Notes: a model not told the origin generated them from the sequence alone. DNA of 64,000 nucleotides from an uncultured Gemmatimonadaceae bacterium (GCA_963781585.1 CAWAGQ010000005.1:32001-96000), one strand, 5' to 3'. Shown: positions 657 to 64,000, counted from the stretch's first letter. Numbers and translations: made by a program.

Positions 657-1715
657 GTGGCGATGCTGGCGTGCGGGTCGGGACACGGCGCGCCGCAGGC
701 GGTGGACCAGACGATGCCGCGGCGCGAGTGGCGCGATCACCCGCCGTCGCCTCGCGAGTACGTCGCGCTTCGCCGCGACGGAGCGCTGGCGGTGGACGGA
801 CGCCTCGACGATCCGGCCTGGGCCAGGGCATCGTGGTCCGCCGACTTCACCGACATCGAGGGCGACGTGCGACCGGCACCGCGGTTTCGCACGCGCATGA
901 AGATGCTCTTCGACAGCTCGTACTGGTACATCGGCGCCGAGCTGGAGGAGCCCGATCTCTGGGCAACGATCCGGCAGCGCGACGCGGTCATCTTCCATGA
1001 CAACGATTTCGAACTGTTCGTGGACCCCGACGGCGACACGCACCGGTACGTCGAGCTCGAGATCAACGCCTTCGCGACGCCGTGGGATCTGTTCCTGCCG
1101 GTGCCCTATCGCGACGGTGGCCATGCAGTGGATTCGTTCGACATCGCCGGACTCCTGGCGCGGGTCGCGCTCGACGGCACGCTCAACGATCCGCGCGATC
1201 GTGACCGCGGATGGACCGTGGAGCTGGCCATTCCGTGGACGTCGGTCGCGGATTCGGGCCGCACTGCCGTGCCTCCGCGCGAGGGCGACGCGTGGCGGGT
1301 GAATTTCTCGCGCGTGGAGTGGGACGTGGACACGACCGCGGGATCGTACGCGAAGCGTCTGGATCGCGTGACCGGCAAGCCGCTCGCCGAGCACAACTGG
1401 GTCTGGTCGCCGCAGGGCGCGATCAACATGCACATGCCCGAGATGTGGGGGGTGGTGTGGTTCGGGCGCGCGACCGCCCCCGACAGTGCCACCCGGGCGA
1501 TACAGTGGACGCTCCGCCGCGTATACTACGCGCAGCGGGCCTATCGGCAGCGCCACGGACGGTACGCCGAAGATCCGGTCGCGTTAGGCATGGCGGCGGA
1601 GGCACGCAACCTGGTGCTGGTGACGACGGGCGATGGATGGGGCGCGTCGTTGCCCGCGCCCGGCGGTGACGGTCGCTGGCACATCCGGGCCGACGGGAGG
1701 CTCTGGCGGGAGTAG
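657..1715 (+). CDS. Carbohydrate-binding family 9-like (CBM9-like) lipoprotein
   Basis: IFHDNDFELFVDPDGD, WRVNFSRVEW and NWVWSPQGAINMHMPEMWG motifs; lipobox MLAC; start uncertain. Confidence 0.8.
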   Translation: MAMLACGSGHGAPQAVDQTMPRREWRDHPPSPREYVALRRDGALAVDGRLDDPAWARASWSADFTDIEGDVRPAPRFRTRMKMLFDSSYWYIGAELEEPDLWATIRQRDAVIFHDNDFELFVDPDGDTHRYVELEINAFATPWDLFLPVPYRDGGHAVDSFDIAGLLARVALDGTLNDPRDRDRGWTVELAIPWTSVADSGRTAVPPREGDAWRVNFSRVEWDVDTTAGSYAKRLDRVTGKPLAEHNWVWSPQGAINMHMPEMWGVVWFGRATAPDSATRAIQWTLRRVYYAQRAYRQRHGRYAEDPVALGMAAEARNLVLVTTGDGWGASLPAPGGDGRWHIRADGRLWRE

Positions 1716-1829
1716 CTGACGCGGCTCGGGCGATGCCGGAAGGGGATGCGGAGTCCGTGGTCGAGCTTTCCCGGCACTATCCCTCGGGCGCCCGACAGGC
1801 GGTTATTGATCAGCGGGACGGAGGCACCG

Positions 1830-2951
1830 ATGCGAAGACGGACATTCCTCGAGAAGCTGGGTGCGTCGCTGGCCAGCGCGACGGTCGCACCGTGGCTGGC
1901 AGCGCGCGCCGCGGCCGCCACCACCGGCCCCGGGTCCGGTCGGTACGCCGGCAGCGCCGCTGCCGCGGACTTCACGGCATGGACCTGGGTCCACGGCAAT
2001 GCCCGCGATGCCGCCCCGGAATGGCGCGCGCGCTTCGCGCGCTTCCGAGCGGCCGGCATCTCGGGCGTACTGGTCGGCGGCGGGGATACCACGACGCTGG
2101 CCGATGCCGCGCACGCCGAGGGACTGCGGTTCCATCGCTGGACGTGGATCATGAATCGCAGCAGCGACGACTGGGTGAAGAAGAACCATCCCGAGTGGTT
2201 CGACGTGAACCGGAAAGGCGAGTCGAGCCTGGATCACCCCCCGTACGTCCCGTACTACCAGTGGCTCTGTCCCACGCGACCCGAGGTCCGCGAGTATCTG
2301 CGCGGCGTGGTGGACGAGGTGGCGACCCATCCGGGGGTGGACGGCGTGCACCTCGACTACATCCGTCACCCCGACGTGATCCTCCCCAGGGGCCTGTGGT
2401 CGAAGTACCGCCTGGTGCAGGACCACGAGATGCCGGAGTACGACTTCTGTTACTGCGAGGTCTGCCGCACGGCGTTCCGCGCCCAGTCGGCCACCGATCC
2501 TCTGCAGCTGCCCGATCCCTCGGCCGATCAGGCGTGGCGCGAGTTCCGGTGGAATTCGATCACCGGCGTGGTGCGCGAGCTGTCGGGCGCGGTGCGCGGG
2601 CGCGGGAAGCAGATCACCGCCGCGGTCTTCCCCACGCCCACCATCGCCCGGAAGCTCGTCAGGCAGGCCTGGGACCAGTGGCCGCTGGATGCCGTCTTCC
2701 CGATGCTCTACCACGGGTTCTACGAGGAGGACATTCCGTGGATCGGCAGGGCGGCGCGGGAAGGCGTGCGCGCGCTGCCGGCCACCGAGCCGCTGTACGC
2801 CGGCCTGTACCTTCCCGACCTCGATCCATCATCGTTAGGCGTGGCGATCCGCGCAGCCCGGGACGGTGGTGCGCGCGGCGTCTCGTTCTTCGATTCGAAC
2901 GGACTGACCGATGGGCATCTGGCGGTTGTTCGCGACGCCCTTGAGGGGTAG
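1830..2951 (+). CDS. Tat-exported glycosyl hydrolase-like 10 family protein
   Basis: MRRRTFL Tat motif; WLCPTRPEVR, DGVHLDYIR and QAWDQW motifs. Confidence 0.75.
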   Translation: MRRRTFLEKLGASLASATVAPWLAARAAAATTGPGSGRYAGSAAAADFTAWTWVHGNARDAAPEWRARFARFRAAGISGVLVGGGDTTTLADAAHAEGLRFHRWTWIMNRSSDDWVKKNHPEWFDVNRKGESSLDHPPYVPYYQWLCPTRPEVREYLRGVVDEVATHPGVDGVHLDYIRHPDVILPRGLWSKYRLVQDHEMPEYDFCYCEVCRTAFRAQSATDPLQLPDPSADQAWREFRWNSITGVVRELSGAVRGRGKQITAAVFPTPTIARKLVRQAWDQWPLDAVFPMLYHGFYEEDIPWIGRAAREGVRALPATEPLYAGLYLPDLDPSSLGVAIRAARDGGARGVSFFDSNGLTDGHLAVVRDALEG

Positions 2952-2961
2952 ACCGGGGAGA

Positions 2962-7413: not shown

Positions 7414-9036
7414 TCAACTACCGCCTCCACTCCGTGTCCGTCCCGGCGGACGGCGCAGCACGCGGCCCGGACGCGCATCGGTGAAGACGTTCTTGTCCAC
7501 CACGGGGACGCCGTTCACGATCACGTAGGGGATCCCTTCGGCATAGTGGTGGGGATCGTCGAAGGTTCCGACGTCGCGCACGGTGGCGGCATCGAAGACG
7601 GCGATGTTCGCCATGCAGCCCTCGTGCAGGCATCCCTGATCCGCGAGCCCGAGCCGGGCCGCCGGCATGCCGGTCATCTTGCGCACCGCGGTCTCGAGCG
7701 TGAGGACGTGCTCGTCGCGCACGTAGTGGCCGAGCACGCGGGGGAACGTGCCGTAGTTCCGGGGATGGGGGACGCCGTCTCCGGGTCTCGTCAGGCGGCC
7801 GTCGCTCGCGATCATCGTCATCGGATGCGCCATGATGCGCTTCACATCGCCCTCGTCCATCACGTGATACACCATCGACGCGCCTCCCTTCAGCACATCA
7901 TCGAGCACCAGCGGCGCGGCGTTCTGCGGCGTTGGCTGCAGTCCCTCCCGCACCACCTGGTCGTAGAGCGTCTTGCCGTTGAGCGTCGCGTCCCAGCCCA
8001 CGCGCGCGAACTGAACCCGCTTGAGATCGCCACCGCCGCGGTCGTTCAGCAGATACTCCACCACGCCGCGGGTGATGCTGTCCTTGAGCACGGGATCGGC
8101 GAGACGCTTCCGCAGCTCGGCGGTCCCGCCGGCCAGCGCCCACGGCGGCACCAGCACGTTGAGCCCGGTGGAGCTCGCGGTGTAGGGGTACTGATCCATC
8201 ATCACGTCGGTGCCGGCCTTGCGCGCCGAGTCGACCATGTGGAGCGTGACCACGCTCTTCCCCCACATCAGCCGGCCGATGGCCTTGTGATGGGTGAGCA
8301 CGACCGGAATGCGTGCGCGGCGTCCGATCTCCAGCGCCTCGGCGACGCCCTCGAGGAGGCCCACGCCTTCCTCGCGCAGGTGCGACGTGTAGATACCGCC
8401 GGAGTCGCCGGCGACCTGCGACAGCGCGACCACCTCATCGGTCTTCGAGTAGAACCCGGGGATGTAGCGCAGGCCGGTGCTCATGCCGAATGCCCCCTGC
8501 CCCATCGACTCCGCGACCATCTGCTCCATGCGCGCGAGCTCGGCGGGGGTGGGGTCGCGGTTTTCGGTGCCCATGACGCGGCGGCGGATGGTGTTGTGTC
8601 CGGCCAGGAAGGCGACGTTCATGCCGAGCGGGCGGGCGGCCACCGAATCGAGGTAGGCACCGAAGGGATACGGCCCGCCGCCATCCGGACCGCCTAACGC
8701 AAGTGTGACGCCCTGGCGTACCGCGCTCTGGGCATCGGGCATGACCAGGATCGGGTCGAGGTGGGCGTGGAGGTCGATGAATCCAGGCGCGACGATCAGA
8801 CCGGTAGCGTCGATCACACGTTTGGCCGACGACGCCGGGATCGGCGTGCGCGACAGCGCGACGACCCGGTCACCGGTGATGGCGACGTCGGCACGGTACC
8901 GCGCCGCGCCGGTACCGTCGATGACCGTCCCACCGGCGATGACCAGGTCGTAGCGTGGCGCCTGCGCCGACAACGGGACTCCCATCCATGGCGCGATGCT
9001 GAGCGCCATTGCGAACGCGAAGTCTTTTTGAAGCAT
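7414..9036 (-). CDS. N-acyl-D-amino-acid deacylase (D-aminoacylase)
   Basis: APGFIDLHAH, GLRYIPG, DQYPYTASST and HPRNYGTFPRVLG motifs. Confidence 0.9.
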   Translation of the reverse strand: MLQKDFAFAMALSIAPWMGVPLSAQAPRYDLVIAGGTVIDGTGAARYRADVAITGDRVVALSRTPIPASSAKRVIDATGLIVAPGFIDLHAHLDPILVMPDAQSAVRQGVTLALGGPDGGGPYPFGAYLDSVAARPLGMNVAFLAGHNTIRRRVMGTENRDPTPAELARMEQMVAESMGQGAFGMSTGLRYIPGFYSKTDEVVALSQVAGDSGGIYTSHLREEGVGLLEGVAEALEIGRRARIPVVLTHHKAIGRLMWGKSVVTLHMVDSARKAGTDVMMDQYPYTASSTGLNVLVPPWALAGGTAELRKRLADPVLKDSITRGVVEYLLNDRGGGDLKRVQFARVGWDATLNGKTLYDQVVREGLQPTPQNAAPLVLDDVLKGGASMVYHVMDEGDVKRIMAHPMTMIASDGRLTRPGDGVPHPRNYGTFPRVLGHYVRDEHVLTLETAVRKMTGMPAARLGLADQGCLHEGCMANIAVFDAATVRDVGTFDDPHHYAEGIPYVIVNGVPVVDKNVFTDARPGRVLRRPPGRTRSGGGS

Positions 9037-9284: not shown

Positions 9285-10802
9285 TTGATTCCTACCTCGA
9301 GAACCCGCGTGCCCTTTCCCGAATACTCCTCGTACGATGCGACCGGTCTCGCCGAGCTGGTGCGCGCAGGACGTGTGGCTCCCCGTGAGCTCGTCGCCGC
9401 GGCCATCGAGCACATCGACGCCCTCAACCCCGCGTTGAACGCGGTCATCCATAAGATGTACGACCGCGCGCTCGCCGACGCCGATGGCGATCTGCCCGAC
9501 GGGCCGTTCCGCGGTGTTCCAATGCTGCTGAAGGACCTCACCTCCCTCTATGGCGGGGAGCCCCTCACCAGCGGCAGCCGTCTGTTTCGGAACTGGATCG
9601 CCCCGCACGACAGCGAAATCGTCAGGCGGTTCAAGCGTGCGGGGCTGATCGTGGTCGGCAAGACCAACGCGCCGGAATTCGGCCTCGTGCCGTACACCGA
9701 ACCCGAGCTGTTCGGGCCGACGCGGAATCCGTGGGACACCGCGCGGACGGTGGGCGGGTCATCCGGCGGATCGGCCGCTGCCGTCGCGAGCGGGATGGTG
9801 CCGGTGGCCGGCGGAGGCGATGGCGGCGGATCGATTCGCATCCCCGCGTCGTGCTGCGGAGTGTTCGGCCTCAAGCCGACGCGTGGCCGAAACCCCACCG
9901 GGCCGGACCAGGGGGAACTGTGGCGCGGCGCCGCGGTGGAGCACGTCCTCGCCCGCACGGTGCGCGACAGTGCCGCCATGCTCGACGTCCTGTCGGGGCC
10001 CGACGCCGGCGCCCCGTACTTCGCGGCTCCGCCGGACCGTCCGTTCGCGCAGGAGGTGGGCGCCCCTCCCGGGCGCCTCCGCATCGCCTTCACCACCCAT
10101 CCCTTTCTCGGGCACAACGTCCACGACGACTGCAAGCGGGCTGTCGCTGACGCCGTCCACATGCTGCAGTCGTTAGGCCACGAACTGGTCGAATCAGCAC
10201 CGGTGGTGAGCCGGGAGGAGTTCAACCTGGCGTTCCTCACGCTGATCTGCGGCGAAGTGCGCGCCGAATTCTCCGATGCACGCGTGGCGCTCGGCCGCCC
10301 GGTGCATCGCAGCGACGTCGAAGCCCCCACCTGGGCGCTGGGCCTCCTCGGCAAGCAGATCACCAGCGGCGACTACGCTTCGGCGCTCCGCTATCTGCAG
10401 CGCACCGGCCGCCGCATCGGCGAGTTCTTCGAGCGCGTGCACGTGCTGCTCACACCGACCGTGGCCACGCCGCCCTTCCGCCACGGCGCCCTGCAACCCC
10501 CGGCCAGCGAACTCGCCATCATGAAGACGCTCGGTGCGATGCACGCCGGGGTGGTGCTGCGCCTGATGGGCGCGCTCAAGCGGGCGGCCGATACGATCTT
10601 CGACTGGATTCCCTGGCCTCCGCTCGCCAACATCACCGGCCAGCCGGCCATGTCGCTGCCGCTCTCGTGGAATGCCGACGGTCTCCCGATCGGCGTACAC
10701 TTCATGGGACGCTACGGCGACGAGGCGACGCTGCTGCGCCTAGCGGCTCAGCTCGAAGCGGCGGTGCCGTGGAGAGACCGCCATCCGCCGGTGTGGTCGT
10801 AG
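9285..10802 (+). CDS. Amidase signature family protein
   Basis: LLKDL, GGSSGGS and [11 protein letters not shown] motifs; true start may be GTG 9309. Confidence 0.92.
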
Positions 10803-11418: not shown

Positions 11419-13818
11419 CTAGTCCTGGCGCAGCGACTGCACCGGGTCCACGCGACTGGCGCGCTGCGCGGGCCTGAGGCTGGCGGCTGTGCTCACCACC
11501 ACCAGGATGGTGATCGCGGCGACGAGCGACACCGAATCGCTCGGGGAGACGCCGGCCAGCAGTGGGGTGAGCGTGCCGGCGAGCCAGACCGCCGCCACCC
11601 CGCCGGCCACCAGCGCCACCGCCGTGGTCCGCAGGTTGGTGCGGAGCACCTCGCGCAGAATCATCGACGGCGTGGCGCCTAACGCCATTCGGACACCGAA
11701 CTCGCGGGTGCGCTGGGCGACCGTGTAGCTCTGGAGCCCATAGACGCCGATGATCGCCAGCACCAGCGCCAGTCCGGAAAAGATGCCGATCACCGCCGCA
11801 TTGAACCGCGGCCGGACGAGCTGACGCTGCGCGCGGGCAGCGAGCGTGGCGAACGAGGAGACCTGCAGATCCGGATCGAGGGTTGCGAGAAATGCACCGA
11901 CCTCGCGGGCAATCGCCGCCGGGTTGGCGGTGCGGATGATCAGGTACGTCGCCCACCGCGGTCGTTGCCGGTTGGACCAGTAGATCTGCGGCTCGACGGG
12001 TGCATTCGGGTTGGCGGCGGGGACGTCCTTCACCACGCCCACGATTGCGAACGTCGCACTGTCGTCAGGCAGCCGCAGGCGGCGGCCCACCGGGTCGGCG
12101 TTCGGCCAGAATCGGGCCGCAAGCCGTTCGTTGATCACCGCGACCAGCGGTCCACCCGCCACGTCGGTGGCCGCGATATCCCGGCCGCGCACCACCGGCA
12201 CACCGAGGGTGGCGAAGTAGCCGGGGCCCACGTCGAACCAGCGCACGGTGCCGCGCACCTGCTCGGCGGGTTGGGCACCATCGGCAATCGCCAGGTCGGT
12301 TTCGGTGCCGCCGAAGAGCGGACCGGCGGACGCTTCTCCGGCCGCCTCCACTCCCGGCAGCGTGGCGACGCCATCACGCGCGCGCGCGAACAACTGCGCC
12401 ACATCGGCCGACGTCGGATACTTGCTCTGCGACGCCAGCAGCCAGGTCGTGGTCACACGGTCGAGGGGAATGCCCGGCGACCATCCGCCGAGCGTCGCCA
12501 GGGAACGGATCAGCAGGCCGGCCCCGGTCACCAGCACGACCGCGAGTGCGATCTCGAGCGCCACCAGCAATCGGCCGAGCGGGGTGCCCCGCATCGACGA
12601 CGTCCGAACGCCGTCGCCGAGCTGCGACCGGACGTCGGCGCGTCCGCTGCGAATGGCCGGGAGCACGCCGACCAGCAGTCCGGTCAGCAGCGACAGCCCG
12701 ATCACGAACACGGTCACGCGGGCGTCGACGTGCACGGCGTCGAGTCGGGGAATGTCGCGCGGCGCCAGCGCCACGAAGAGGCGGCTCAGCCACGTGCCGG
12801 CCAACAGTCCCAGGGCGCCGCCCACCACGGCGATGACCAGGCTCTCCACCAGCACGCCACGCGCCAGCGCCCATCGCGGGGCGCCGAGGGCCGCACGGAG
12901 GGCGTACTCGCGCGCGCGGGTGGCGTTTCGCGCGAGGTAGAGGTTCGCGAGATTTGCGCAGCCGATGAGCAGCACGAAGGTCACGGCGCCGAGGAAGGTG
13001 AGCAGTGTGCCGCGAGCGGATCCGATGATCAGGTCCTGCACCGGGCGTACTTCGATCCCCCAGTCGGGCTTGTCGGCAAAGTGGGTGGTCTGCAATCCAC
13101 CGGCGAGTCGGGAGACATCGCGACGCGCGTCGTCGATGGTCGCGGACGATTTCAGCCGCGCAAACGCCCGGAATCCACGCCACGTGCGGTTCTCTTCGCT
13201 GCTCGGCGAGAACGGAATTGGCAGCCAGGCGTCGATGTCTTCCATGGTCGGGATGCGCACATCGGGGTCGAGGACCCCGACGATGGTGCGTGTCTCGTCG
13301 TTGAGGATCACGGGGTGCTCGAGCACGTCGGCGCGCCCGCCGAGCTGCTCCTGCCAGAAGCGGTGGCTGACGAGAGCCACCTTTGCGCCGGCGCCGATCT
13401 CGTCCGGCGCGAACGCGCGGCCGCGTTCCAGCCGCACGCCGAGCAGTGTGAACAGCGCCGGCGACGCGAGTCCGCCGGTTACGCTCACGGCGCCGTCGGG
13501 TCCACGCATCACCACCGGCCAGTCGCGGCCGAGTCCCACCGCTGCCAGCGTGCTGCTCTCCCTGCCGAGGTCGGCCGCGTTAGGCGGCGACGTCACGCAG
13601 AACGAATCGCGTTCCTTTTCCGGGAACTCGCACAGCGCGACCAGCTGTGACGGTCTGGGGAAGGGCAGCGGCCGCAGCAGGATGCCGTTGACGACGTTGA
13701 ACACGCCGGCGTTGGCGCCGATGATGAGCGCGACGGTAGCGACTGCGGCGAGAGAGAAGGCGCGATGACGGGCGAGGCCTCGCCAGGCGGCGCGAAAGTC
13801 GGCACGAATGGAAGTCAC
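11419..13818 (-). CDS. ADOP-type duplicated ABC permease (MacB/FtsX x2)
   Basis: LLIGCANLANL, REYALRAALGA and REFGVRMALGA motifs; GTG start inferred. Confidence 0.9.
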   Translation of the reverse strand: MTSIRADFRAAWRGLARHRAFSLAAVATVALIIGANAGVFNVVNGILLRPLPFPRPSQLVALCEFPEKERDSFCVTSPPNAADLGRESSTLAAVGLGRDWPVVMRGPDGAVSVTGGLASPALFTLLGVRLERGRAFAPDEIGAGAKVALVSHRFWQEQLGGRADVLEHPVILNDETRTIVGVLDPDVRIPTMEDIDAWLPIPFSPSSEENRTWRGFRAFARLKSSATIDDARRDVSRLAGGLQTTHFADKPDWGIEVRPVQDLIIGSARGTLLTFLGAVTFVLLIGCANLANLYLARNATRAREYALRAALGAPRWALARGVLVESLVIAVVGGALGLLAGTWLSRLFVALAPRDIPRLDAVHVDARVTVFVIGLSLLTGLLVGVLPAIRSGRADVRSQLGDGVRTSSMRGTPLGRLLVALEIALAVVLVTGAGLLIRSLATLGGWSPGIPLDRVTTTWLLASQSKYPTSADVAQLFARARDGVATLPGVEAAGEASAGPLFGGTETDLAIADGAQPAEQVRGTVRWFDVGPGYFATLGVPVVRGRDIAATDVAGGPLVAVINERLAARFWPNADPVGRRLRLPDDSATFAIVGVVKDVPAANPNAPVEPQIYWSNRQRPRWATYLIIRTANPAAIAREVGAFLATLDPDLQVSSFATLAARAQRQLVRPRFNAAVIGIFSGLALVLAIIGVYGLQSYTVAQRTREFGVRMALGATPSMILREVLRTNLRTTAVALVAGGVAAVWLAGTLTPLLAGVSPSDSVSLVAAITILVVVSTAASLRPAQRASRVDPVQSLRQD

Positions 13819-23084: not shown

Positions 23085-25471
<2,387 letters not shown>

Positions 25472-26744: not shown

Positions 26745-26858
26745 GCCTAACGAAGGTTTGCAGCAGACGGCGGGGCTAAGGTGGGCACGGCGGTACGCTG
26801 CGCGTTCCGCCGTGCTCTTATATGATGTCCCGCCGCAGCTGAAACTGAACGGTTAGGG
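26745..26858 (+). other. Integron attC site (intact)
   Basis: R'' GCCTAAC ... GGCGGG ... GCACGGCGG/CCGCCGTGC ... CCCGCC GCAGCTGAA ... R' GTTAGGG; long imperfect inverted repeat. Confidence 0.85.
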
Positions 26859-29547: not shown

Positions 29548-29551
29548 GGCG

Positions 29552-40568: not shown

Positions 40569-41425
40569 ATGCGCGCACGCCACGTGAGCCTGACATCGTC
40601 AGGTATGCTTGCTGTCGCCTTGCTGCACTCGGGGTGTACCCCGGAGCGGCCGGATCACCCGGTGGAATACCGCTCCCCGGCCGGGGTCCAATACCTGGCC
40701 CTGTCGGACACCGGAGCCGTGGCGCACGCGGACTCCGCCCTGGCCGCCGACCCGCGCAACGTCGAGAAGATCCTGCAGCTCGGCCTCGCGCAGGCCGGCA
40801 TTCGCCGTACCGCGAGGCGATCGTGACCTTCACCCGCGCGATTGCGATCGCGCCCGACAGCGGAATCCTCTACCGCTGGCGCGGCCACCGCTACCTGTCG
40901 GTGCGGCAGCTGGACAGCGCGCGGGCCGACCTCGAGCACGGGCTCGCCCTCGATTCCACGCTGTACGGCTGCTGGTATCACCTGGGCGTGGTCAAGTACG
41001 TGACCGGGGACTTCGGCGGCGCAGCCGATGCCTTCGCGCGCGCCCTGCCGCTGGCGCCTAACGCCGAAGAGCACGCCGGATCGATCGACTGGGGCTGGAT
41101 GTCGCTGTCGCGGGCCGGGCACTCAGCCGATGCGCAGGCGTGGCTCGACCGCAACAGCGATTCGATCCCGGCGGTGAATGCCTACACCCGGCGACTGCAG
41201 TTGTATCGCGGCCAGATTCCGCCCGACCAGCTGATCACGCCCGCCGACACGCAGGACATCCAGGTGGCGACGTTGAAGTACGGACTGGGCAACTGGTACC
41301 TGGTGCGCGGCGACACGGCGCAGGCTCGTGCCGCCTTCCAGGCTTCGGTTGCGTCGGGTGGCTGGCCGGCGTTCGGGTTCATCGCCTCAGAGGCGGAGTT
41401 GCGCCGCCTGGGGGCTGCCAGGTAG
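40569..41425 (+). CDS. TPR lipoprotein, apparent frameshift at ~40810
   Basis: Lipobox HSGC; LYRWRGHRYLS and WYHLG TPR helices; two frames join. Confidence 0.75.
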
Positions 41426-49531: not shown

Positions 49532-52193
49532 TTATTCCGCCCGCAGCGCGATCGTTGGGTCAACTCCCGCCGCCCGGCGCGACGGCGCCCACGCGGCCAG
49601 AAGCGCCACGGCCACCATCAACCCGATCACGACGCCATACGTGACGGGATCGAGCGGATGTCACACCGAACAACATGGACGCAATCAGCCGGGTGGAGGC
49701 GAACGCCCCGGCCAGTCCGACGGCAGCCCCCGTGAGTGAGAGCGCGAGCGCGCCACGCACCACCTCGCCCACCACTTCTCTCGGTGTGGCACCCAGCGCC
49801 GTGCGGATCCCGATCTCGCGAGTGCGGTCGCTGACGTTTCCGGAAACGAGCCCGTAGAGCCCGATCGCGGCCAGGAGGAGTGCGATCACTGCCGCCGTTT
49901 CGATGGCCAGCAGGACGAACCGTCGATTCCCCGCCGACTCGGTGATGTAGCCATCCATCGTCCGGACGCGCTGGATCGGCACGTTCGCGTTCACCGACCA
50001 GATGGCGCGCTGGAGACTCGGGACCAGCGCCGACGCGCGCCCTGCGGCGCGCGCCACGAGCGTGACCACGTTGTCCGCCCACACCCACTGTCCGTTCGCC
50101 ACGTAGAAGGCATCCGGCGCACGCACCGCCAGCGAGTAGTGCCTGACGTCTCCCACCACGCCCACCACCTCGGCCCATGGTCGAGCCGTTTCGATCTCCG
50201 GCCCGAACCGCAGGCGCTGGCCGATCGGATTCGCGGCCCCGAACAGCCGCTTCGCGAAGGTCTCGTTGATGACCACCGCCTCCGGCGCCCCCGGCCGATC
50301 GGTTGCGTCGAGCAGCCGCCCGCGAACCAGCGGAACGCGCATCGTCGCGAAGTAGTCCGGCGTCACGGCGTACCGGAGTGCGCTGCCGTTTTCGCCGGCT
50401 TTCGCATCGGGCAGCGACTGCGCTTCATACCCGTAGCCGTCCACATCGCCGGACAGCGGCAACTCGCTCGTGAACGCGGCGCTCGCGACGCCGGGTACGC
50501 GCCGGACGGCGTCGAGCGCCTGGTCGAAGAACTGGAGCCGAGCCGCATCGGAGTCGAACGCGTGCCCCGCCTCGATCACCTGCATGGTCACCACCTGCGA
50601 CGGATCGAATCCGGGTGGCACCGACACCAGCCGGCGAACACTCCGGAGAAGCAGGCCGGCGCTGACGAGCAGCATCAGCGCGAGCGCCACTTCGGCGACC
50701 ACCAGCGCGCTCCGTGCGCCGCCCCGGACGGCTGTGGCGCGGAGCGACCGGTGCTGCAGTCCCTCGGTGACCCCGGCGCGCATTGCGCCTAACGCCGGCG
50801 TGACGCCCACGAGCAATCCGATGAGTGCGGTGAGCGCCGCCGCGAAGGCGAAGACCGGCGCGTCCAGCCGGATGGCGTCGACTCGCGGCAACCCGGGCGG
50901 GCTCACCGCAACCAGTGCGCGTATCCCCAGCCGGGCAACGGCCAGCCCGAGCGTTCCGCCCAGCAGCGCGATCGCCACGCTCTCGGTAAGCAGCTGGCGC
51001 AGAATCCGCCGCCGCCCCGCGCCGAGCGCCATGCGCATGGCGAATTCGGTGCGCCGCCGCGCACTCCGGGCGAGCAGGAGACTCGCGACGTTCGCCGACG
51101 CGATCAGAAGCAGGAGCAATACCGAACCGATGATGGCGAAGAGGGCCGGCCTGGCACTTCCGGTGACGGCCTCCTGCAATGGCCGCACGAGCAGACCCTG
51201 CTCGAGATCGGCCCACGGCGGACGCGGAAAATCGGCGGCCGGCGTGCGGCCGACGGCAAGCATCTCGCGCGTCGCCCCATCGACCGTCGCCGACGGTGCG
51301 AGCCGCCCTACCAGCTGGTAATGATGGCCCCACTGGCGCGTGTTGAAGTCGGCCGTGACACGCTCCCGGAGCGGCGACCAGATCTCGGCCGCCGGCGCGA
51401 GGACGTTCGTGAAGGCGTGCGGCATGACGCCGATCACCAGATGCGGATCGCCGTTCAGGTCGATGGACCGGCCCACGATCTCCCGGGCGCCGCCGAACCG
51501 TCGCGCCGCCAGTGCGTCACTGAGGATCACGACGCCAGGCGCGCCGGGTTGATCGTCCGCGGCGGTGAACCCCCGACCGGCGATCGGCACCGCGCCGAAC
51601 ACGTCGAAGTAGTCCGCGGTCACGCGCTGTCCGTCGATCCGCTCCGGCGTGCCCGCTCCGGTGAGCGACGGCTGCCAGCGGTCGGCGGCGGCCAGCGCTC
51701 CGAAGGAATGGGCGCGCGCCCGCAGCTCGTCGTAGGTGCCGAGGGTCGCGGCCATTGGAACGCCCGCGTCGTTCCAATCGTCCACGGTGACCAGGCGGTG
51801 CGCCTCCGGAAAGGGCAGCGGTTCGAGCAGGATCGGACTCGCGGCGCTGAACACGGCGGTGCTTGCACCGATGCCGACCGCGAGCGTCGCCACGGCGGTA
51901 AACGTGAACACGGGACTTCGCCGGAGGCCGCGCAGCGCATAGCGCAGGTCGAGCCAGGTCGTCTCCATCGCGTGCTCCCACCCGGAGGCACGCACCTGTT
52001 CGCGAACGGCGATGGCTCCGCCGGCCTCGGCGAGCGCCGTCCGTCGCGCGACCTCCGGAGGCAGCCCGCTCCTGACGTGCGCGGCGGTGGCTTCGTCGAG
52101 ATAGTGCGCCACCTCGTCCGCGACGTCGTCATCTGTCTGGCGCGACCGGACGAGCGCACGAATCCCCCGCCCCACCTGCCGGAGCAGCGACAC
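49532..52193 (-). CDS. ADOP-type duplicated ABC permease, apparent frameshift at ~49660
   Basis: Prefix domain; the C-terminus PLDPVTY...VDPTIALRAE* continues in another frame. Confidence 0.88.
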
Positions 52194-52739: not shown

Positions 52740-55724
52740 ATGATCCCCGTCAACATGCTGCGCCTGTTGACATTCGGAGGGCTCGCCCTCGAGCGGCCAG
52801 GGGGACCGCCGCCGCCGCGGCTCCGTCCGCAACGGCTGGCGATTCTCGCTGTCCTGGCTGCCGCCGGCGACCGCGGCGTGTCGCGCGAGCGCATGACCGG
52901 ACTCTTCTGGCCGGAAGCGGACGAGGAACGGGCCCGTCACTCGCTGCGCCAGGCGCTGTATTCCTTGCGTCAGGAGCTGGGCGCCGGCGTGATCCGGTCC
53001 GGCGCGCAGTTGTCGTTCGATGGCGCCGCCTTTACCTCCGACGTCGGTGACTTCCGGGCCGCCGTCGCCGCGGGCGACCGGGCTCGTGCCGCAGCGCTCG
53101 CGACCGGGCCGTTTCTTCTCGGATTCTATCTCGCTGACAGTCCCGAATTCGAGCGCTGGGTGGAAGAGGAGCGCGGCGCCCTCACGGCCGAGGCCACCCG
53201 CGTCGTCCTCGCGCTCACCAGGGAGGCCGACGCCGGCGGCGATCACGATGCCGCGGTGGAGTGGTGGCGCCGGCTCACGACGCTCGACCCGCTGAGCGGC
53301 CGCTTCGCGTTAGGCTACCTGAAGGCGCTGGCTGCCCGCGGCGACCGTGCCGGGGCGCTGGCCTTCGCCCGGTCGCACGAGAACATCGTCCGCCGCGAAC
53401 TGGAGGCCGATTCCGATCCGGAGATTCGCCGGCTGGAGGCGGAGTTGCGCGCCATCCCGTCGCCCGCGGTGGTCCGCGCCGCCCCGCCACGGGCGCTCGA
53501 CGCCGGTGTCGCGGTCGATGGGGCGCCCGCCCGCACGCCTGACGAGGCAGGGCCCGACGCGAAGCCATCCGGCCTCCCGATGCCGGCGGGTTCGACCGCC
53601 GGGACGAACGCGCCGCGTGACCCCAGTGCGGATGCAACCCCATCGCGCGCCGCCGCCATCCCGCCGCCACGCTCACCGAAACGACCCTGGCTCGTCCCGA
53701 GCGTGGCGGCCGCGGGCGTGTTGGTCGTCGTGTCCATCCTGACCGCCGACCGGTGGGGCCCGGCGTTGGGCCTCGGCGCCCATCGCAAGTCACCAACGTT
53801 TGCGGTGGGGATCATCCGCGAGGAAGGCGTTCCCGATACACTGCGAATCGGGGGCGTGCTCACCGACATGCTGGCCACCAACCTGGCGCGCGTGGGCGGG
53901 CTCTCGGTGCTGGCCAATGCGAGGCTCTTCGAGTTGATGCTCCCGGGTCAGGATACGCTCGAAACGGGATACCTCGAGGCGGCACGCCGCGCCGGCGCCA
54001 CCGAGATCTTCCAGGGGCGTCTGCTTTCCGGCCCGCAGTGGAGCCTGGCGATGGAGATGCAGCGCGTGGATCTCGCAACCGGCATCGTTCGCAGCGCCTA
54101 TCGCGTCGCCGCCGCCAACCGGTATGCTCTGATCGACAGCATGACGGCGGCGATCGCGCGTGACCTGCGTGTCGGCATGCCCAGCAGCTCGGTGGCCGAC
54201 GCCACGACCGACTCGCCGATGGCGTATCGCCTCTACGAGGAGGGACTCCGCGCCTACTATCAGTACGACCAGCCCGCGGCACGGCGCCTGATGCAGGCAG
54301 CGCTCGACGAGGACTCGAGCTTCGCGATGGCGGCGTATTACGATGCGCTGCTCGCGCCAAGCGGGGGCCACGAGGAAGTCGACACCCGCCGGCGGGCGCT
54401 GCAGCTCGCCGCCCGCGCGCCCGAGCGCGAGCGTCTGACGATTTCGGCCGATCTGCTCACACAGGACATGGAACCGGCGGCGCTGGCCGTCGCCGAGTCC
54501 TTGACCACGAGATATCCCACCAACCCGCGCGCGTTTGCGTTGTACGCGAGCGCCCTGCACTTCGCCGGCCAATGGCGCGACGCCGTGACGGCGATCGAGC
54601 GCGCGATCGCGCTGGACTCGGCGTCGGAGCCCGTAGAGCGGCAAAACTGCAGGCTTTGCTCGGACCTCGGACAGCTCGCCGAGGTCTACTTCTGGTGGGA
54701 TTCGCTGCCCGCAGCAGAGCGCACCGCGCGACGCTTCCTCCGACTTCGTCCGAGCTCGCACTATCCCTGGCATCTCCTGGTCCGTTCGGCGGCTGCGCGT
54801 GGCGACCTGACCGCCTTCCGCGAGTATTTGCGACACTACGACGCGGCGAATCCATCGATCACGTCGGCGAACTACCTGCTCCACTTCGTGACGCTCGCCG
54901 AGGATTACGACGAGGTCGAACGGAGCGTGCAGAGGGCCCTGGACTCACCGAGAGCGGACGACGCCAGCGAGGCCCGGTGGTTTCGCTCTATCTCGCTCCG
55001 GAACGAGGGGCGTCTGGAGGAGGCCCTCAGGCTGGCGCGCGTGCGTCCGAACCCGAACGACCTGGCCGAAGGACTGATCGCGCTCGAGCGTGGGGATCCC
55101 CGCACCGCCGTATCGATCTTCGGCGCATACGCCCGGGGGGATCAGTCCATGTGGTCGCCCGGCGTTCAGGCGCGGCACGACGCCTGGAACCGCACACTCC
55201 TGGGAATGGCTCTGGCCGCGGCGGGCGACACGATTGCCCTGCGCGCGCTCGCCGACACGGTGGAGAATCTGGGACGCCGGAGCATCTACGGCCGCGACCG
55301 GCGCGCACACCACTACTTGCGCGGGATGCTGCTGGTGGCCGAGCACCGCGACACCGAGGCGGCCGACGAGTTGCGTCAGGCAATCCACTCGCCGACCAAC
55401 GGATTCACCCGCATCAACTACGAGCTGGGGAAGACGCTCATGCGGTTGGGGCGTCCCGCCGAAGCGGTGCCGGTGGTTCGAGCGGCGCTGCACGGAGACA
55501 TCGACGGGTCGAATCTGTACATGACGCGAACCGATCTCCACGAGCTCCTCGCCCAGGCATTCGATCGGCTGGGGAGTCGCGACAGCGCGTCAGTGCATTA
55601 TCGCGCGGTGGTCAAGGCCTGGGAGCACGCCGACCCGCTATACCACGCGCGGCGCGAGCAGGCGCGCGCATGGCTGGCGCGGAATCCGGAGCCCCGGACC
55701 ACCGGTACGGCCAGGGATCGTTAG
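52740..55724 (+). CDS. SARP-like BTAD transcriptional regulator with TM segment and TPR C-terminus
   Basis: LLTFGGL, FWPEADEERARHSLRQALY and EFERWVEEER motifs; Pro-rich linker; TM helix; TPRs. Confidence 0.85.
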   Translation: MIPVNMLRLLTFGGLALERPGGPPPPRLRPQRLAILAVLAAAGDRGVSRERMTGLFWPEADEERARHSLRQALYSLRQELGAGVIRSGAQLSFDGAAFTSDVGDFRAAVAAGDRARAAALATGPFLLGFYLADSPEFERWVEEERGALTAEATRVVLALTREADAGGDHDAAVEWWRRLTTLDPLSGRFALGYLKALAARGDRAGALAFARSHENIVRRELEADSDPEIRRLEAELRAIPSPAVVRAAPPRALDAGVAVDGAPARTPDEAGPDAKPSGLPMPAGSTAGTNAPRDPSADATPSRAAAIPPPRSPKRPWLVPSVAAAGVLVVVSILTADRWGPALGLGAHRKSPTFAVGIIREEGVPDTLRIGGVLTDMLATNLARVGGLSVLANARLFELMLPGQDTLETGYLEAARRAGATEIFQGRLLSGPQWSLAMEMQRVDLATGIVRSAYRVAAANRYALIDSMTAAIARDLRVGMPSSSVADATTDSPMAYRLYEEGLRAYYQYDQPAARRLMQAALDEDSSFAMAAYYDALLAPSGGHEEVDTRRRALQLAARAPERERLTISADLLTQDMEPAALAVAESLTTRYPTNPRAFALYASALHFAGQWRDAVTAIERAIALDSASEPVERQNCRLCSDLGQLAEVYFWWDSLPAAERTARRFLRLRPSSHYPWHLLVRSAAARGDLTAFREYLRHYDAANPSITSANYLLHFVTLAEDYDEVERSVQRALDSPRADDASEARWFRSISLRNEGRLEEALRLARVRPNPNDLAEGLIALERGDPRTAVSIFGAYARGDQSMWSPGVQARHDAWNRTLLGMALAAAGDTIALRALADTVENLGRRSIYGRDRRAHHYLRGMLLVAEHRDTEAADELRQAIHSPTNGFTRINYELGKTLMRLGRPAEAVPVVRAALHGDIDGSNLYMTRTDLHELLAQAFDRLGSRDSASVHYRAVVKAWEHADPLYHARREQARAWLARNPEPRTTGTARDR

Positions 55725-55825
55725 GCTGTGGCCGGTCAGAGGTGTTCATCGAGCGGGCACCTGAGTGCCCACGGGCAACGGCAAGGCCGGCGCGTTGACT
55801 ACCCCCGCTGGGGTGCCCGGCGCCC

Positions 55826-57896: not shown

Positions 57897-59159
57897 TCAT
57901 TGCTTCACCACCTCCACCCGCCGATTCTGCGCCCGGCCGGCGAGCGTGGTATTCGGGACCGCCGGTTTGGTGTCGCCGAGTCCCTGCGTGGTGATGCGGT
58001 CGGCGTCGGCGCCGAAGTCGGAGACGAGCGCCGCCTTCACCGCCGCCGCGCGCGCGTCGCTCAGTGTGAGGTTGCTCGCCGCCGAGCCGACGTTGTCGGT
58101 GTGCCCTTCGATCAGGATCTTCAGGTCGGCGTGCTGCTTCATCGTGGCGGCGATATCCTTCAGCACCGGCCGCGACTCGGGCTGCAGGTCCGCCTTGCCG
58201 GTGGCGAAGAGGATCCCCTGCGTTACCCATCGCCCCTTGCTGGCGAGCGCGTCGTACAGCACGTCGGTCTCGCTCTCGGCCACCCGGATGCTGGTGATGA
58301 AGAGCGCCTGATCATTCGCCTCGCTCCCGCCCAGCAGCACGCGGATGACGGTGTCGCGCTTGAACTGGAGCTCGGGATTGTTGTAGAGGCGCTTCTCGTT
58401 CGCGTACATCTTGAAGTACGCACTGTCCATCAGGATACGGAGGTGGGCCACCTTGCCGTAGTACAGCTGGGCCATGTCGGCCGGGGGATGCAGCTGGCTG
58501 GTGGCGATGCTCTGCCCGCCGCCAATGATGAAACCACTGTGCGTATGCCAGTTGATCTCGGCCGACTTCGGGCTCCGGTCCATGGCCGCGCCGCCCTCCA
58601 CCGCCACCAGCGGCGACGTGCTGGGGTAGACGGGAGGCACCAGCACATCGATCTCGAGCGTGAAGCGTTGCGGCAGGACGCGGCCTAACGGGACGAGGAG
58701 CGTTCCGGTGCCGGTGGCCCGGAGCATCTTCACGTCATCGCGCTCCACGACTTCCATCGGGCCGCCGACGTACTTCAGTCCCCGGGCGAAGTTGCCGACC
58801 TTGTCCTCGGAGAAGTCGGTGTAGAAGAGCACCTTGTTCCCGGGCACGAAGTCGTAGTTCTCCCAGATCTTCGGGTCGGCCTTCGCCGCGGGTTCCGTTC
58901 CGCCGGGGGTTGTCGCGGCGGGTGCCTGCCCGGACGGCGGCGCCGCTCCTCCAGCCGCGTTAGGCTTCGTGGAATCGGCGGCGGCTTTCGCCCTGGCGCT
59001 GTCGGCGGCGGACTTCCTGGCGGCCTCGTCGATCTTCTTCTTCGCTGCCTCGGCCTTCTTCTTCAGCGAACCGAGACCCTGCGCGGAGCCGGCGCCCGGA
59101 GATGCCACGGCGAAGCCGAGCGCCGCCAGACCGATCGCCAACCGTCTCATGATGTGCAT
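57897..59159 (-). CDS. OmpA-family peptidoglycan-binding protein
   Basis: YDFVPG N-domain; EGHTDNVG...LSDARA...NRRVE. Confidence 0.9.
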   Translation of the reverse strand: MHIMRRLAIGLAALGFAVASPGAGSAQGLGSLKKKAEAAKKKIDEAARKSAADSARAKAAADSTKPNAAGGAAPPSGQAPAATTPGGTEPAAKADPKIWENYDFVPGNKVLFYTDFSEDKVGNFARGLKYVGGPMEVVERDDVKMLRATGTGTLLVPLGRVLPQRFTLEIDVLVPPVYPSTSPLVAVEGGAAMDRSPKSAEINWHTHSGFIIGGGQSIATSQLHPPADMAQLYYGKVAHLRILMDSAYFKMYANEKRLYNNPELQFKRDTVIRVLLGGSEANDQALFITSIRVAESETDVLYDALASKGRWVTQGILFATGKADLQPESRPVLKDIAATMKQHADLKILIEGHTDNVGSAASNLTLSDARAAAVKAALVSDFGADADRITTQGLGDTKPAVPNTTLAGRAQNRRVEVVKQ

Positions 59160-62083: not shown

Positions 62084-62099
62084 CGCCCACTCCGATCGA

Positions 62100-64000
62100 T
62101 CATTGCTCGCGAAGCACCACGGCGGGATCCGTCCGGCTGGCGCGGGCGGCCGGAACCAGCGCAGCCACGATGCCCACCACCAGCAGGGCGGTAAGCGAGG
62201 CCAGCATCGCCAATGGGTCGGTGGGACCCACACCATATACAAGGGCGGTGAGGAACCGCGCCACCACCACGAAAGCGATCAGGCCGACCGCGGCGCCGAC
62301 GATCACCAGGAGCGCTCCGCGCGTGACGATGCCCGACACCACCCGCGCCGGTCGCAAGCCGAGCGCGATGCGTATGCCCCAGTCGCGCCGTCGACGCGCG
62401 ACGAAGTGCGACATCACGCCGTAGATCCCGATGGCGCACAGCACCAGTGCCAGGCCGGTGAGAATCGCGGCCAGCATCATCACCTGCCGCACGGGTCCGA
62501 CGGCCCGCTCGAAGACGCGCTCCATGGTCGTTGCCTCGGCAACCGCCGCTCGTGGCGCCTCCCGCTGGATCGTGGCCCGAACGGTCGGCAGCAGCGGTGC
62601 CGGATCCTGGTCGGCCATGGTACGGAAGACGAGTGTCTGCTTGCTCGAAACAAACGCCAGCGTTTCCAGGGGCGAATACCGCACCGGTGCCGGCGCTTCG
62701 GTGAGCGCTCCTTCCGCGACGTTGCCGACCACGCCGACGATGCGCGCCATCGTGGGCTTGAAACCGGCGTTGACGCGGCGTCCCACCGGATTCTCCCCGT
62801 TCAGGAATTTCCTGGCGAAGGCCTCGTTGATCACCACCACGCCGGCCGAGGTGTCGTCCGACACGCGCGGTCCGTCCGCGGTCTCGAGGGCCCTCCCCTG
62901 CCTGACGGGAATCCCCATGGTGGTGAAGTAGTCTGACGAGACGAACCGCACGAACGTCGACGTGCGCGGGAGGTCCCGCTTCCCTTCCACCAGGATGCCT
63001 CCACTCCACCCGCCGCCCCGGAGCGGTAACTGTTGCACGACCGCCGAGCTGGCGACGCCGGAAATACCGCGGACGCCCGCGAGGAGCTCCCGGACTGTCG
63101 CCAGTCGCTCGGGCGCTCGCATCGCATCCGGAAGCACGACGTCCACCACGCCGACGCCGCGGGCGCGGATTCCCGGATCGATGGCGGACAGACGGTTCAC
63201 GCTCCGGAGCAGCACGCCCGCGCCGGCCGTCATGAGCACCGCCAGCGCAACCTGGGCGACAACCAGCAGGCTCTCGAGACGCGCACCGCCGCCGACCACG
63301 CCGCCTGTACGATCGGCGCCGATGGTGTGACGCAGGCGCCCGTGCCAGAGCGCCAGGGCCGGCACGACTGAAATGCCGAGCGCCGAACCCAGGGCCACGA
63401 TCAGCGCGACCGCGAAGACGGTCCAGTCGAGCGACGCCGTCTCGGCCCAGGCGCCGAGCGGCAGCGCGGCAACGATGACGCGAAACGCTGCCCCGGCCAG
63501 AACCGCGCCTACCGCCCCCGACACGACTCCGAGCATCATCCCTTCGGCCACGAGCTGACCCCCCAGCCGCCGGCGATTCGCGCCTAACGCGGAGCGGATG
63601 GCCAGCTCGGTGGCGCGCCCTTCGACCTGACCGAGCATGAGCGCGGCCACGTTGACGCAGGCGATAAGCAGGATCAGGCCCATGGCCGCCAGCGTCGCCA
63701 CCACGGCCGGCCGGAGCGGGCGCACGAAGCCTTCGCGAATGGGTCGGATCCAGGGGTCGCGCGTCTTGTCGAACTGCTGCGTATACCGAAACCGCTCGCC
63801 CAGCATACGCGTGAGCTGGGCGAGCTGGCCGGACAGTCGGTCGAGGCGCTGGCCGGGAGCGGCGCGGCCCACCAGCGAGTAGCTGCCGTTGTCGTCGTTC
63901 GGGTCGACCGCCGCCGGCACCCAGACCCGGATCGTCGGCGTCGGGAACCAGAATCCGCGCGGCATCACGCCGATCACCGCACGATCCACGCCGTCGAGGC
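62100..64000 (-). CDS. ADOP-type duplicated ABC permease, 5' end outside the window
   Basis: LLIACVNVA, ELAIRSALGA and GIRIALG motifs. Confidence 0.9.
   Translation of the reverse strand, partial: LDGVDRAVIGVMPRGFWFPTPTIRVWVPAAVDPNDDNGSYSLVGRAAPGQRLDRLSGQLAQLTRMLGERFRYTQQFDKTRDPWIRPIREGFVRPLRPAVVATLAAMGLILLIACVNVAALMLGQVEGRATELAIRSALGANRRRLGGQLVAEGMMLGVVSGAVGAVLAGAAFRVIVAALPLGAWAETASLDWTVFAVALIVALGSALGISVVPALALWHGRLRHTIGADRTGGVVGGGARLESLLVVAQVALAVLMTAGAGVLLRSVNRLSAIDPGIRARGVGVVDVVLPDAMRAPERLATVRELLAGVRGISGVASSAVVQQLPLRGGGWSGGILVEGKRDLPRTSTFVRFVSSDYFTTMGIPVRQGRALETADGPRVSDDTSAGVVVINEAFARKFLNGENPVGRRVNAGFKPTMARIVGVVGNVAEGALTEAPAPVRYSPLETLAFVSSKQTLVFRTMADQDPAPLLPTVRATIQREAPRAAVAEATTMERVFERAVGPVRQVMMLAAILTGLALVLCAIGIYGVMSHFVARRRRDWGIRIALGLRPARVVSGIVTRGALLVIVGAAVGLIAFVVVARFLTALVYGVGPTDPLAMLASLTALLVVGIVAALVPAARASRTDPAVVLREQ

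Follow-up and report, generated by a model that had tools for sequence, protein, structure and literature searches.

The octamer GCCTAACG, whose reverse complement is CGTTAGGC, is over-represented throughout the genome of an uncultured Gemmatimonadaceae bacterium, and the constraint that maintains it acts on double-stranded DNA. It was studied from a window of 64,000 nucleotides (C5:32001-96000) that forms part of a 5.72-Mb assembly, here called G000, which consists of 17 contigs and is 93.5% complete and 7.2% contaminated. From analogy with known systems we tentatively read the octamer as a selected genome-wide word resembling a DNA uptake sequence, which may be spread by a drive coupled to recombination or, more broadly, to DNA transfer. 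Beyond what an initial annotation of the window had described, the word coincides with the core of integron attC sites, is patchy within a genus, shows short-range repulsion between its copies and tracks the G+C content of third codon positions (GC3).

Abundance and codon context of the octamer

The plus strand of the window contains 11 copies of GCCTAACG and 9 copies of CGTTAGGC. The 20 perfect copies reported in the initial annotation were all found where it had placed them, and its estimate that base composition predicts about 2 agrees with the computed zero-order expectation of 2.4; in 100 dinucleotide-preserving shuffles of the window the mean was 1.09 copies and the maximum 4. Independent gene calls also reproduce the earlier tally of reading frames, with 13 copies in NCG-TTA-GGC, 5 in G-CCT-AAC-G, 1 over a stop codon and 1 between genes. 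The copies are listed below, the first strand given being that of GCCTAACG.

1582..1589, minus strand: sense CG-TTA-GGC in gene 657-1715 (+), CBM9-like
2833..2840, minus strand: sense CG-TTA-GGC in gene 1806-2951 (+), GHL10-like
8692..8699, plus strand: sense CG-TTA-GGC in gene 7414-9036 (-), amidohydrolase
10171..10178, minus strand: sense CG-TTA-GGC in gene 9309-10802 (+), amidase
11677..11684, plus strand: sense CG-TTA-GGC in gene 11419-13956 (-), MacB/FtsX permease
13578..13585, minus strand: sense G-CCT-AAC-G in the same permease gene, 11419-13956 (-)
15169..15176, plus strand: sense CG-TTA-GGC in gene 14110-15318 (-), BlaR1/M56-like
16366..16373, minus strand: sense G-CCT-AAC-G in gene 15815-18598 (-), M14 carboxypeptidase; absent from the same-genus ortholog
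17771..17778, plus strand: sense CG-TTA-GGC in the same M14 gene, 15815-18598 (-); absent from the same-genus ortholog
19793..19800, plus strand: sense CG-TTA-GGC in gene 18884-20215 (-), acyltransferase
25038..25045, minus strand: sense CG-TTA-GGC in gene 23603-25471 (+), S9/DPP-IV peptidase
26745..26752, plus strand: intergenic, left arm of an attC-like imperfect palindrome at about 26745-26860 with right arm GTTAGGG
37644..37651, plus strand: sense G-CCT-AAC-G in gene 36667-37776 (+), without a Pfam family
41056..41063, plus strand: sense G-CCT-AAC-G in gene 40823-41425 (+), TPR protein
50787..50794, plus strand: sense CG-TTA-GGC in gene 49560-52193 (-), MacB/FtsX permease
53308..53315, minus strand: sense CG-TTA-GGC in gene 52740-55724 (+), BTAD/TPR protein
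55719..55726, minus strand: over the TAG stop (CGT-TAG-GC) of gene 52740-55724
58683..58690, plus strand: sense CG-TTA-GGC in gene 57897-59159 (-), OmpA-family
58958..58965, minus strand: sense G-CCT-AAC-G in the same OmpA-family gene, 57897-59159 (-)
63582..63589, plus strand: sense CG-TTA-GGC in the gene from 62100 to past the window end (-), FtsX permease

The enrichment extends to the whole genome, as had been proposed. G000 carries 1442 copies, 718 in the forward and 724 in the reverse direction, where base composition predicts 217, and all 17 contigs carry the octamer at 0.19-0.34 per kb. Since the density is similar on every contig, the word is neither a local feature nor one carried by a contaminant contig. 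It is also sharply defined: its one-mismatch variants are present in 7-243 copies, apart from GCCTGACG (1519 copies), GCCGAACG (987) and GCCTCACG (508), which are built of common codons. Position -1 prefers C or T and position +8 prefers C or A, with at most 0.29 bit of information, and all other flanking positions carry 0.12 bit or less. The absence of conserved flanks identifies a free-standing 8-mer and not the core of a longer repeat, and a dispersed repeat of the repetitive extragenic palindrome (REP) or miniature inverted-repeat transposable element (MITE) type is ruled out by the same values.

The choice of null model matters here, because ordinary 8-mers exceed the base-composition expectation 7-9 fold through codon usage (CGATGATC does so 9-fold); base composition is therefore a weak null and codon-aware nulls were chosen. 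A maximal-order Markov null is uninformative, with 1417 copies expected against 1442 observed. It shows no excess because the constituent 6- and 7-mers exist almost solely within the octamer, which contains 1442 of the 1916 occurrences of CCTAAC as well as 47% of the genome's CTAA/TTAG tetramers. Genes were called with an iterated codon-usage scorer in place of a standard gene finder, giving 4681 genes that cover 86.5% of the genome. When synonymous codons were shuffled within genes (20 runs), 27 and 20 copies remained in the two orientations, with maxima of 35 and 34, against 343 and 797 observed. The enrichment thus survives a codon-preserving shuffle (1140 genic copies against about 47), and this null is conservative because the TTA codons supplied by the octamer are retained in it.

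The override of codon preference is most evident for leucine. As the initial annotation had suspected, TTA is concentrated in the octamer: 764 of the 1402 TTA codons (54.5%) lie in NCG-TTA-GGC, compared with 0.4-1.3% for the other five Leu codons, and in the window 13 of the 16 TTA codons fall within the word. Viewed from the contexts that could hold it, the octamer fills 764 of 2033 for NCG-Leu-GGC, 275 of 523 for G-CCN-AAC-G, 68 of 595 for NGC-Leu-ACG and 33 of 1686 for C-GTN-Arg-C, so that all stop-free frames are filled above the normal share of their codon. Stop codons are recruited as well, with 71 of 1400 TAG codons (5%) read as CGT-TAG-GC and 44 of 367 TAA codons (12%) as GCC-TAA-CG. 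The fills in Leu, Pro-Asn and stop contexts together mean that every available frame is used. It is this codon-aware excess in all frames, over stops and in spacers that places the constraint on double-stranded DNA. The earlier claim that DNA and not protein is constrained is further borne out by the removal of the excess on synonymous shuffling and by the retention of sites above background between congeners. The effect on the proteome is modest, the tripeptides ALG, SLG, PNV and PND occurring at 1.16, 1.19, 1.30 and 1.32 times the expectation based on dipeptides.

Within genes the position of the octamer is near uniform, with a slight dip at both ends for the form that reads CGTTAGGC in sense. 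Counts per gene are near Poisson and slightly under-dispersed, and no gene hot spots were found in the per-gene counts of G000. A by-product of translation, either a codon-pair preference or a regulatory pause dependent on TTA, would fit with the 70% of genic copies that read CGTTAGGC in sense, with the 764 copies that contain the rare TTA codon and with the existence of tRNA-Leu(UAA), which is present in G000 along with the other four tRNA-Leu anticodons. Such an origin is nevertheless extremely improbable, as enrichment in sense extends to the reverse complement (in the Pro-Asn contexts), two more frames, stop codons and spacers are enriched, the synonymous shuffle abolishes the excess, there is no 5' bias along genes, and relatives of similar codon usage are without the octamer.

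Occurrence among relatives and turnover of sites

The octamer was counted in 41 relatives and in 301 genomes of the phylum, two sets that partly overlap. Only some Gemmatimonadota are enriched, in keeping with the lineage specificity proposed at the outset. The highest count is that of G009, with 6360 copies in 5.1 Mb (1.25 per kb), followed by G304 (4469), G297 (4141), G240 (3896), G000 itself, G165 (1100) and G211 (1061). Other genera of the same family are enriched to a lower degree, as are one genus of a second family and two of a third; in the other nine families (102 genomes) no genome rises above its control. Most relatives have 6-40 copies, below the count of the reversed control word, and in several non-enriched genomes the matches run along one strand with a spacing of mostly 400-700 bp, like integron cassette arrays. 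The unpublished genomes G008, G085, G124 and G203, all non-enriched, were used in tallies only.

Where the word is densest it has the same character as in G000. In a 196-kb sample of G009 it is the top 8-mer, with 240 copies (31 times the base-composition expectation), the same flank preferences and all four frames in use (77, 49, 41 and 23 copies). The enriched state is labile among relatives, even within one genus, in which G293 has 66 copies against about 4000 in each of G240 and G297. Sister pairs in opposite states are G131 or G297 with G293, G005 with G156, G023 with G002 and G014 with G017. On a tree of 41 genomes built from one gene (the conserved methyltransferase described below, 880 columns), the state requires 11 parsimony changes against 14.0 in label shuffles, 7.3% of which need 11 or fewer; the groups are here defined by the feature itself, and kin are non-independent. 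A different word, CCAGCTGG, has 576 counts on both strands of the G000 genome and 2 in a 400-kb sample of the complete, non-enriched genome G095, a scarcity which suggests avoidance of a CAGCTG-type restriction site in the latter.

Conservation of individual sites was followed between the congeners G297 and G240, whose sequences align collinearly over 71,822 bases with 83.0% identity. Of the 60 aligned copies, 44 (73%) are perfectly kept whichever genome is taken as the starting point, against a background of 26.3% for all 8-mer windows and of 5277 out of 20060 for windows with equal A/T count (p 4e-14), and 49 of 102 one-mismatch variants are conserved. The wobble T of the octamer is conserved at 79% and the adjacent wobble positions at 53-60%. 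Selection thus acts on the octamer DNA, and the site conservation that the initial annotation had proposed to look for in relatives is present. Where one partner is without the octamer it often shows a synonymous Leu state (reverse complements CGTTGGGC, CGCTGGGC and CGCTCGGC), which fits an all-synonymous path from CTG through TTG to TTA.

At longer evolutionary distance the sites turn over. The ortholog of the M14 peptidase in the same genus (56% protein identity) has neither of the two copies present in the window gene. At the 106 gap-free aligned sites of G009, G000 has the octamer at 11 and encodes the same peptide at 25; the latter figure indicates that the octamer lies mostly at variable residues.

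Spacing, GC3 and the search for a reader protein

Orientation with respect to replication was assessed with GC skew in 20-kb windows as a proxy for replichores, in a draft of 17 contigs. Windows of positive skew contain 381 forward and 428 reverse copies, and those of negative skew 325 and 271. The plus strand carries 57% of the coding bases in the former and 39% in the latter, and the differences in count follow from gene orientation combined with the 70:30 sense preference. No skew is seen beyond this effect, which agrees with the earlier description of the motif as non-palindromic and free of strand bias.

The copies avoid one another. Gaps between adjacent copies have a coefficient of variation of 1.00 with short gaps missing: in G000 there are 30 pairs less than 300 bp apart where 106 are expected, and in the G009 sample 2 pairs less than 100 bp apart where 26.6 are expected. 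The density of pairs is back at expectation at about 600-1000 bp in G000 and by about 300 bp in the G009 sample, so that the exclusion distance, about 300-600 bp in G000 and about 100-200 bp in G009, shrinks with rising density. Such short-range avoidance fits a rule by which one word per fragment suffices. For the DNA uptake sequence (DUS) of Neisseriaceae, a passage of PMC2397512 ties spacing to the size of conversion fragments.

The octamer is also coupled to GC3. Over octiles of gene GC3 in G000 its density climbs about 9-fold, from 0.043 to 0.399 per kb, and the filled share of NCG-Leu-GGC from 12.7% to 47.1%. Codons of the same composition outside the word behave in the opposite manner. 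Between the lowest and the highest octile, TTA in the octamer rises from 0.86 to 8.10 per 1000 Leu codons while other TTA falls from 10.4 to 3.3 and CTA from 28.1 to 3.6; similarly, CCT in the octamer rises from 0.12 to 5.99 per 1000 Pro codons while other CCT falls from 116 to 34. The same trend is seen by GC3 tertiles in samples of G297, G240 and G009. Across bacteria, gene GC content is described in part of PMC4450053 as positively and consistently linked to recombination. If the link between GC3 and recombination holds here, the octamer would accumulate where recombination is frequent.

These properties would fit an uptake-type drive. A DNA-transfer protein, most likely a surface receptor of the type IV pilus/ComEC kind, would prefer double-stranded DNA that bears the octamer, and such fragments would enter cells and recombine more often. 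Given favoured entry and recombination, any mutation that creates the octamer would spread by molecular drive, whether of benefit or not. Selection on proteins would then limit it to tolerated spots, namely synonymous Leu codons (reached by CTG to TTG to TTA), Pro-Asn pairs, stops, variable residues and spacers. The copy number, codon override, conservation in sister species, spacing and rarity at low GC3 are shared with the uptake signal sequence (USS) of Pasteurellaceae and with DUS, G000 has uptake genes, and on this ground the uptake-type drive is tentatively favoured. The initial annotation had listed an uptake sequence, a nucleoid or repair protein site and a modification target as possible functions; the first of these is provisionally the best fit.

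Several observations weigh against this reading. The density is 0.232 per kb in genes and 0.258 per kb between genes, with no clear intergenic excess, unlike USS and DUS. Close pairs are depleted in both relative orientations, and there are thus no close inverted pairs of the kind that USS and DUS form at terminators. GC3 is only a proxy for recombination, and motif-biased repair of heteroduplexes would give the same coupling and the same conservation. The two longest octamer-free stretches, of 38.7 and 38.4 kb, contain core genes (alaS, recX, recA and ftsK in one; arg genes, ispG, murB, gidA and parA in the other), whereas DUS are reported in part of PMC2397512 to be enriched within the core genome. 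The 400-kb sample of G095 has 0 copies of the octamer, and no word specific to its lineage exceeds about 6-fold; there is hence no 'dialect' in the one genome sampled. No gene that tracks enrichment, whether for an uptake receptor or for another function, was found among about 10 candidates, and the known uptake genes are equally present in non-enriched genomes. No report of natural transformation in Gemmatimonadota was found in open-access papers and preprints. Finally, uptake does not of itself explain why the word should match the attC core.

The housekeeping genes within both of the longest octamer-free stretches rule these out as foreign islands. The gidA/parA stretch has a GC3 of 0.70 and a second, 90%-identical copy on another contig. 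An origin-proximal block with gidA, argG, ispG and other genes is in fact present twice, at about 284-357 kb of C8 and about 276-324 kb of C5, with about 90% protein identity; both blocks have a GC3 of 0.70-0.72, compared with 0.83 genome-wide, and almost no octamer. The duplication suggests either a mixture of strains or species in the assembly, of which 7.2% is contamination, or a large duplication.

The octamer might instead be a binding site for a chromosomal protein, either a nucleoid organiser or a 'self' tag for defence or repair, kept by ordinary selection for regular coverage and not as a signal for transfer. Strand symmetry, the roughly Poisson and slightly under-dispersed counts over genes, an avoidance range that shrinks with density, near-uniform positions in genes and the conservation of sites are all compatible with such a site. 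On the other hand, congeners dispense with the octamer (66 copies against about 4000), which makes a housekeeping role unlikely, and neither the 9-fold gradient along GC3 nor the octamer-free stretches over recA and the gidA/parA block suggest even coverage. No candidate gene tracks enrichment, and no comparable system based on thousands of orientation-free, non-palindromic 8-mers is known to us. We regard a site of this kind as unlikely.

Candidate readers were tracked through 24 enriched and 26 non-enriched genomes. ComEC is found in 24 of 24 and 24 of 26, respectively (48 of 50), and a PilQ-like secretin, which scores just below the curated cut-off, in 49 of 50 (26 of the 26 non-enriched); being near-universal, neither discriminates between the two groups. 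In G000 itself ComEC is accompanied by a PilQ-like secretin of full length and by 8 prepilin-like genes; the two of these that were compared across genomes, both stand-alone pilins, have homologs in enriched and non-enriched genomes alike. VirB4 was detected in 0 of 50 genomes, which removes VirB4-type secretion as a correlate. For Vsr the figures are 1 of 24 among enriched genomes and 8 of 26 among the non-enriched, if anything an anti-correlation with enrichment, and it was rejected as the driver. Its one occurrence in the enriched set is a fusion to a C5 cytosine methyltransferase (Dcm-Vsr) in a single 543-aa frame of G000 (C7:477045-478676); since Vsr is in no other enriched genome, the fusion is not common to the set.

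DNA methyltransferase genes are few in G000, and none of N6_N4 type was found in that genome. A 1076-aa Eco57I/MmeI-like adenine methyltransferase (C6:142082-147699) adjoins an 800-aa SNF2/ResIII helicase and has been retained, at 37-63% identity, by 48 of 49 genomes of the order. Restriction-type genes are seldom so widely conserved, which suggests that the enzyme has a housekeeping role. As a reader it was rejected, as it is present whatever the state of the genome and no column of its alignment tracks the trait, the lowest p value among 5698 tests being 0.0034. A 450-aa Eco57I/TaqI_C methyltransferase was likewise set aside, having been found in 1 of 3 dense genomes tested.

These results bear on the possibility that the octamer is produced by motif-biased repair or conversion, in which a mismatch or nicking enzyme, possibly with a methyltransferase, would resolve near-cognate heteroduplexes toward GCCTAACG, much as in very-short-patch repair or in a mechanism that has been put forward for HIP1, and the word would build up where recombination or repair takes place. 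Exactness at 8 positions, similar density in genes and spacers and the conservation of sites between sister species would all be accounted for, and the patchiness (11 changes among 41 genomes) is as expected for a dispensable or mobile enzyme gene. The coupling to GC3 would also follow, GC3 being itself ascribed to biased conversion in part of PMC4450053, and there is a precedent in the highly iterated palindrome HIP1, an octamer linked to methyltransferases (passages of PMC4390886 and PMC13756078). We nonetheless consider biased repair rather improbable. Vsr is scarcer in enriched than in non-enriched genomes, the methyltransferases of G000 are few, with none of N6_N4 type and none that tracks enrichment, and short-range avoidance between sites is not predicted. 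Moreover, the frame that is mutationally easiest to reach, GC-CTA-ACG (from CTG to CTA), is among the least filled (68 of 595).

Integron likeness and comparison with known systems

The octamer contains GCCTAAC/GTTAGGC, which we take to be the inverse core and core of attC sites (consensus RYYYAAC / GTTRRRY). By this consensus the octamer is the attC core itself, and this applies to the word and not only to one of its copies; by a rough estimate the probability of a chance match is well below 1 in 100. The copy at 26745, the sole window copy inspected for a partner arm, belongs to a hairpin with a bottom-strand energy of -35.6 kcal/mol (z -4.6), and attC sites of this order begin or end with the octamer. 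The surrounding region (25500-30700) has a GC content of 0.64, lower than its surroundings, and small genes without a Pfam family in addition to the attC-like hairpin. As the window is without an integrase, this attC-bearing stretch looks like a stray cassette. An Rfam search of the window from 25 to 31 kb gave no match. The integron integrase of G000 is encoded elsewhere, at C7:185885-186829.

The genomic copies are not attC sites in general, since their flanks are unconserved genome-wide and close partners are depleted. They could still be binding or secondary sites of the integron integrase or of a related tyrosine recombinase. This link would draw on the attC core and inverse core contained in the octamer, on the array-like one-strand matches in non-enriched relatives, on the hairpin at 26745 and on the frequency of integrases in the order, where 36 of 50 genomes have one above the family cut-off. 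It is very unlikely, given that the integrase is spread evenly over enriched (17 of 24) and non-enriched (19 of 26) genomes, is present only as a broken three-piece copy in the densest genome, G009, and is missing from one 99%-complete enriched genome. The unconserved flanks and depleted close pairs are again adverse, and secondary integrase sites within genes should be harmful, not favoured.

There is a slim chance that the reader, be it an uptake receptor or another transfer protein, shares the specificity of the attC core, in which case the cassettes of the phylum would carry an entry tag. If so, the enriched lineages would have tied the import of DNA to the movement of integron cassettes, and transformation would be linked to integrons in a way not described before.

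A further element, of at least 1.8 kb, is present in G000 in three identical copies, from C7:172257 onward, from about C7:182840 onward and at about 309 kb of C13. The 303-aa tyrosine recombinase that it encodes is a relative of integron integrases, and the element is probably an insertion sequence. As its ends differ from the octamer, it was discarded as a source of the word.

Elsewhere in the window there are five MacB_PCD/FtsX permease paralogs of 800-900 aa (11419-13956, 43865-46300, 46359-49067, 49560-52193 and 62100-64000), and a small gene of about 111 aa precedes or follows three of the five. Such a number of paralogs is what would be expected of a soil phylum of this sort. A repeat of about 120 bp lies between genes at 9063-9182 and, inverted, at 2955-3032. 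Dozens of copies with 80-94% identity, often tandem or overlapping, are scattered in the same-genus genome G001, and this arrangement points to a REP/MITE-like dispersed family.

Among known systems the octamer most closely resembles USS and DUS. In common with these it is a short non-palindromic word equally frequent on both strands, here at 0.25-1.25 per kb, which occupies tolerated frames and variable residues, is conserved between sister species, is spaced more evenly than chance at short range and is rare in compositionally atypical genes, here those of low GC3. Three genomes for which passages of PMC2817400 give uptake-sequence counts have 1471, 765 and 1892, and the effects on the proteome and on permissive sites described there are of the same kinds. 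The octamer differs in occurring in another phylum, one without known competence, in the lack of an intergenic excess and of terminator-like inverted pairs, in its patchiness within a genus and in the lack of a 'dialect' in the one non-enriched genome sampled. It is, in addition, an A/T-centred word in a genome of 67% G+C and reaches its highest density in the genes richest in GC3.

HIP1 of cyanobacteria (GCGATCGC), which the octamer resembles less closely, is likewise a hyper-abundant octamer of coding and non-coding DNA that overrides codon preference, is selected and is missing from some lineages (parts of PMC5861425 and PMC13756078). It is palindromic and read by known orphan methyltransferases, whereas the present octamer is non-palindromic and has no methyltransferase that tracks it; HIP1 is also reported to have a correlate in type IV secretion, for which there is no counterpart here (VirB4 in none of the 50 genomes). 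HIP1 itself is now proposed as an uptake signal (a passage of PMC13756078) and, according to part of bioRxiv 10.1101/2024.09.10.611283, improves transformation.

With the R''/R' boxes of integron attC sites the word shares the canonical core and inverse core, and one window copy is an attC-like arm; the genomic copies differ in standing alone within genes, independent of the presence of an integrase. Chi, the FtsK orienting polar sequences (KOPS) and the architecture imparting sequences (AIMS) are also 8-mers over-represented across a whole chromosome. Chi and KOPS are strongly co-oriented with replication, whereas the octamer is balanced (718 against 724) and its residual asymmetry is an effect of gene orientation.

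To our knowledge, hyper-abundant words of the uptake type are firmly known in only two proteobacterial families, with HIP1 now being drawn in. Open-access papers and preprints yielded nothing on the octamer or on uptake signals in this phylum, and when other uptake signals consisting of over-represented octamers were looked for, none but the known systems came up. Gemmatimonadota are a widespread soil phylum that has been little studied, and a third, independent case there would imply that DNA is exchanged in a sequence-selective manner. The case is unusually tractable: the roughly 11 on/off switches among 41 genomes, some within a genus, amount to a natural experiment through which phylogenetic profiling might reveal the reader, and among the strongly enriched genomes at least G304 is complete, in 4 contigs, and may come from culture. 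The GC3 coupling and the short-range spacing offer quantitative tests between uptake drive and biased repair, and the identity with the attC core raises the possibility of a link between transformation and integrons. What is new here is thus a word that resembles an uptake sequence in a new phylum, whose enriched state switches between close relatives, whose density is coupled to GC3 and whose sequence coincides with the attC core.

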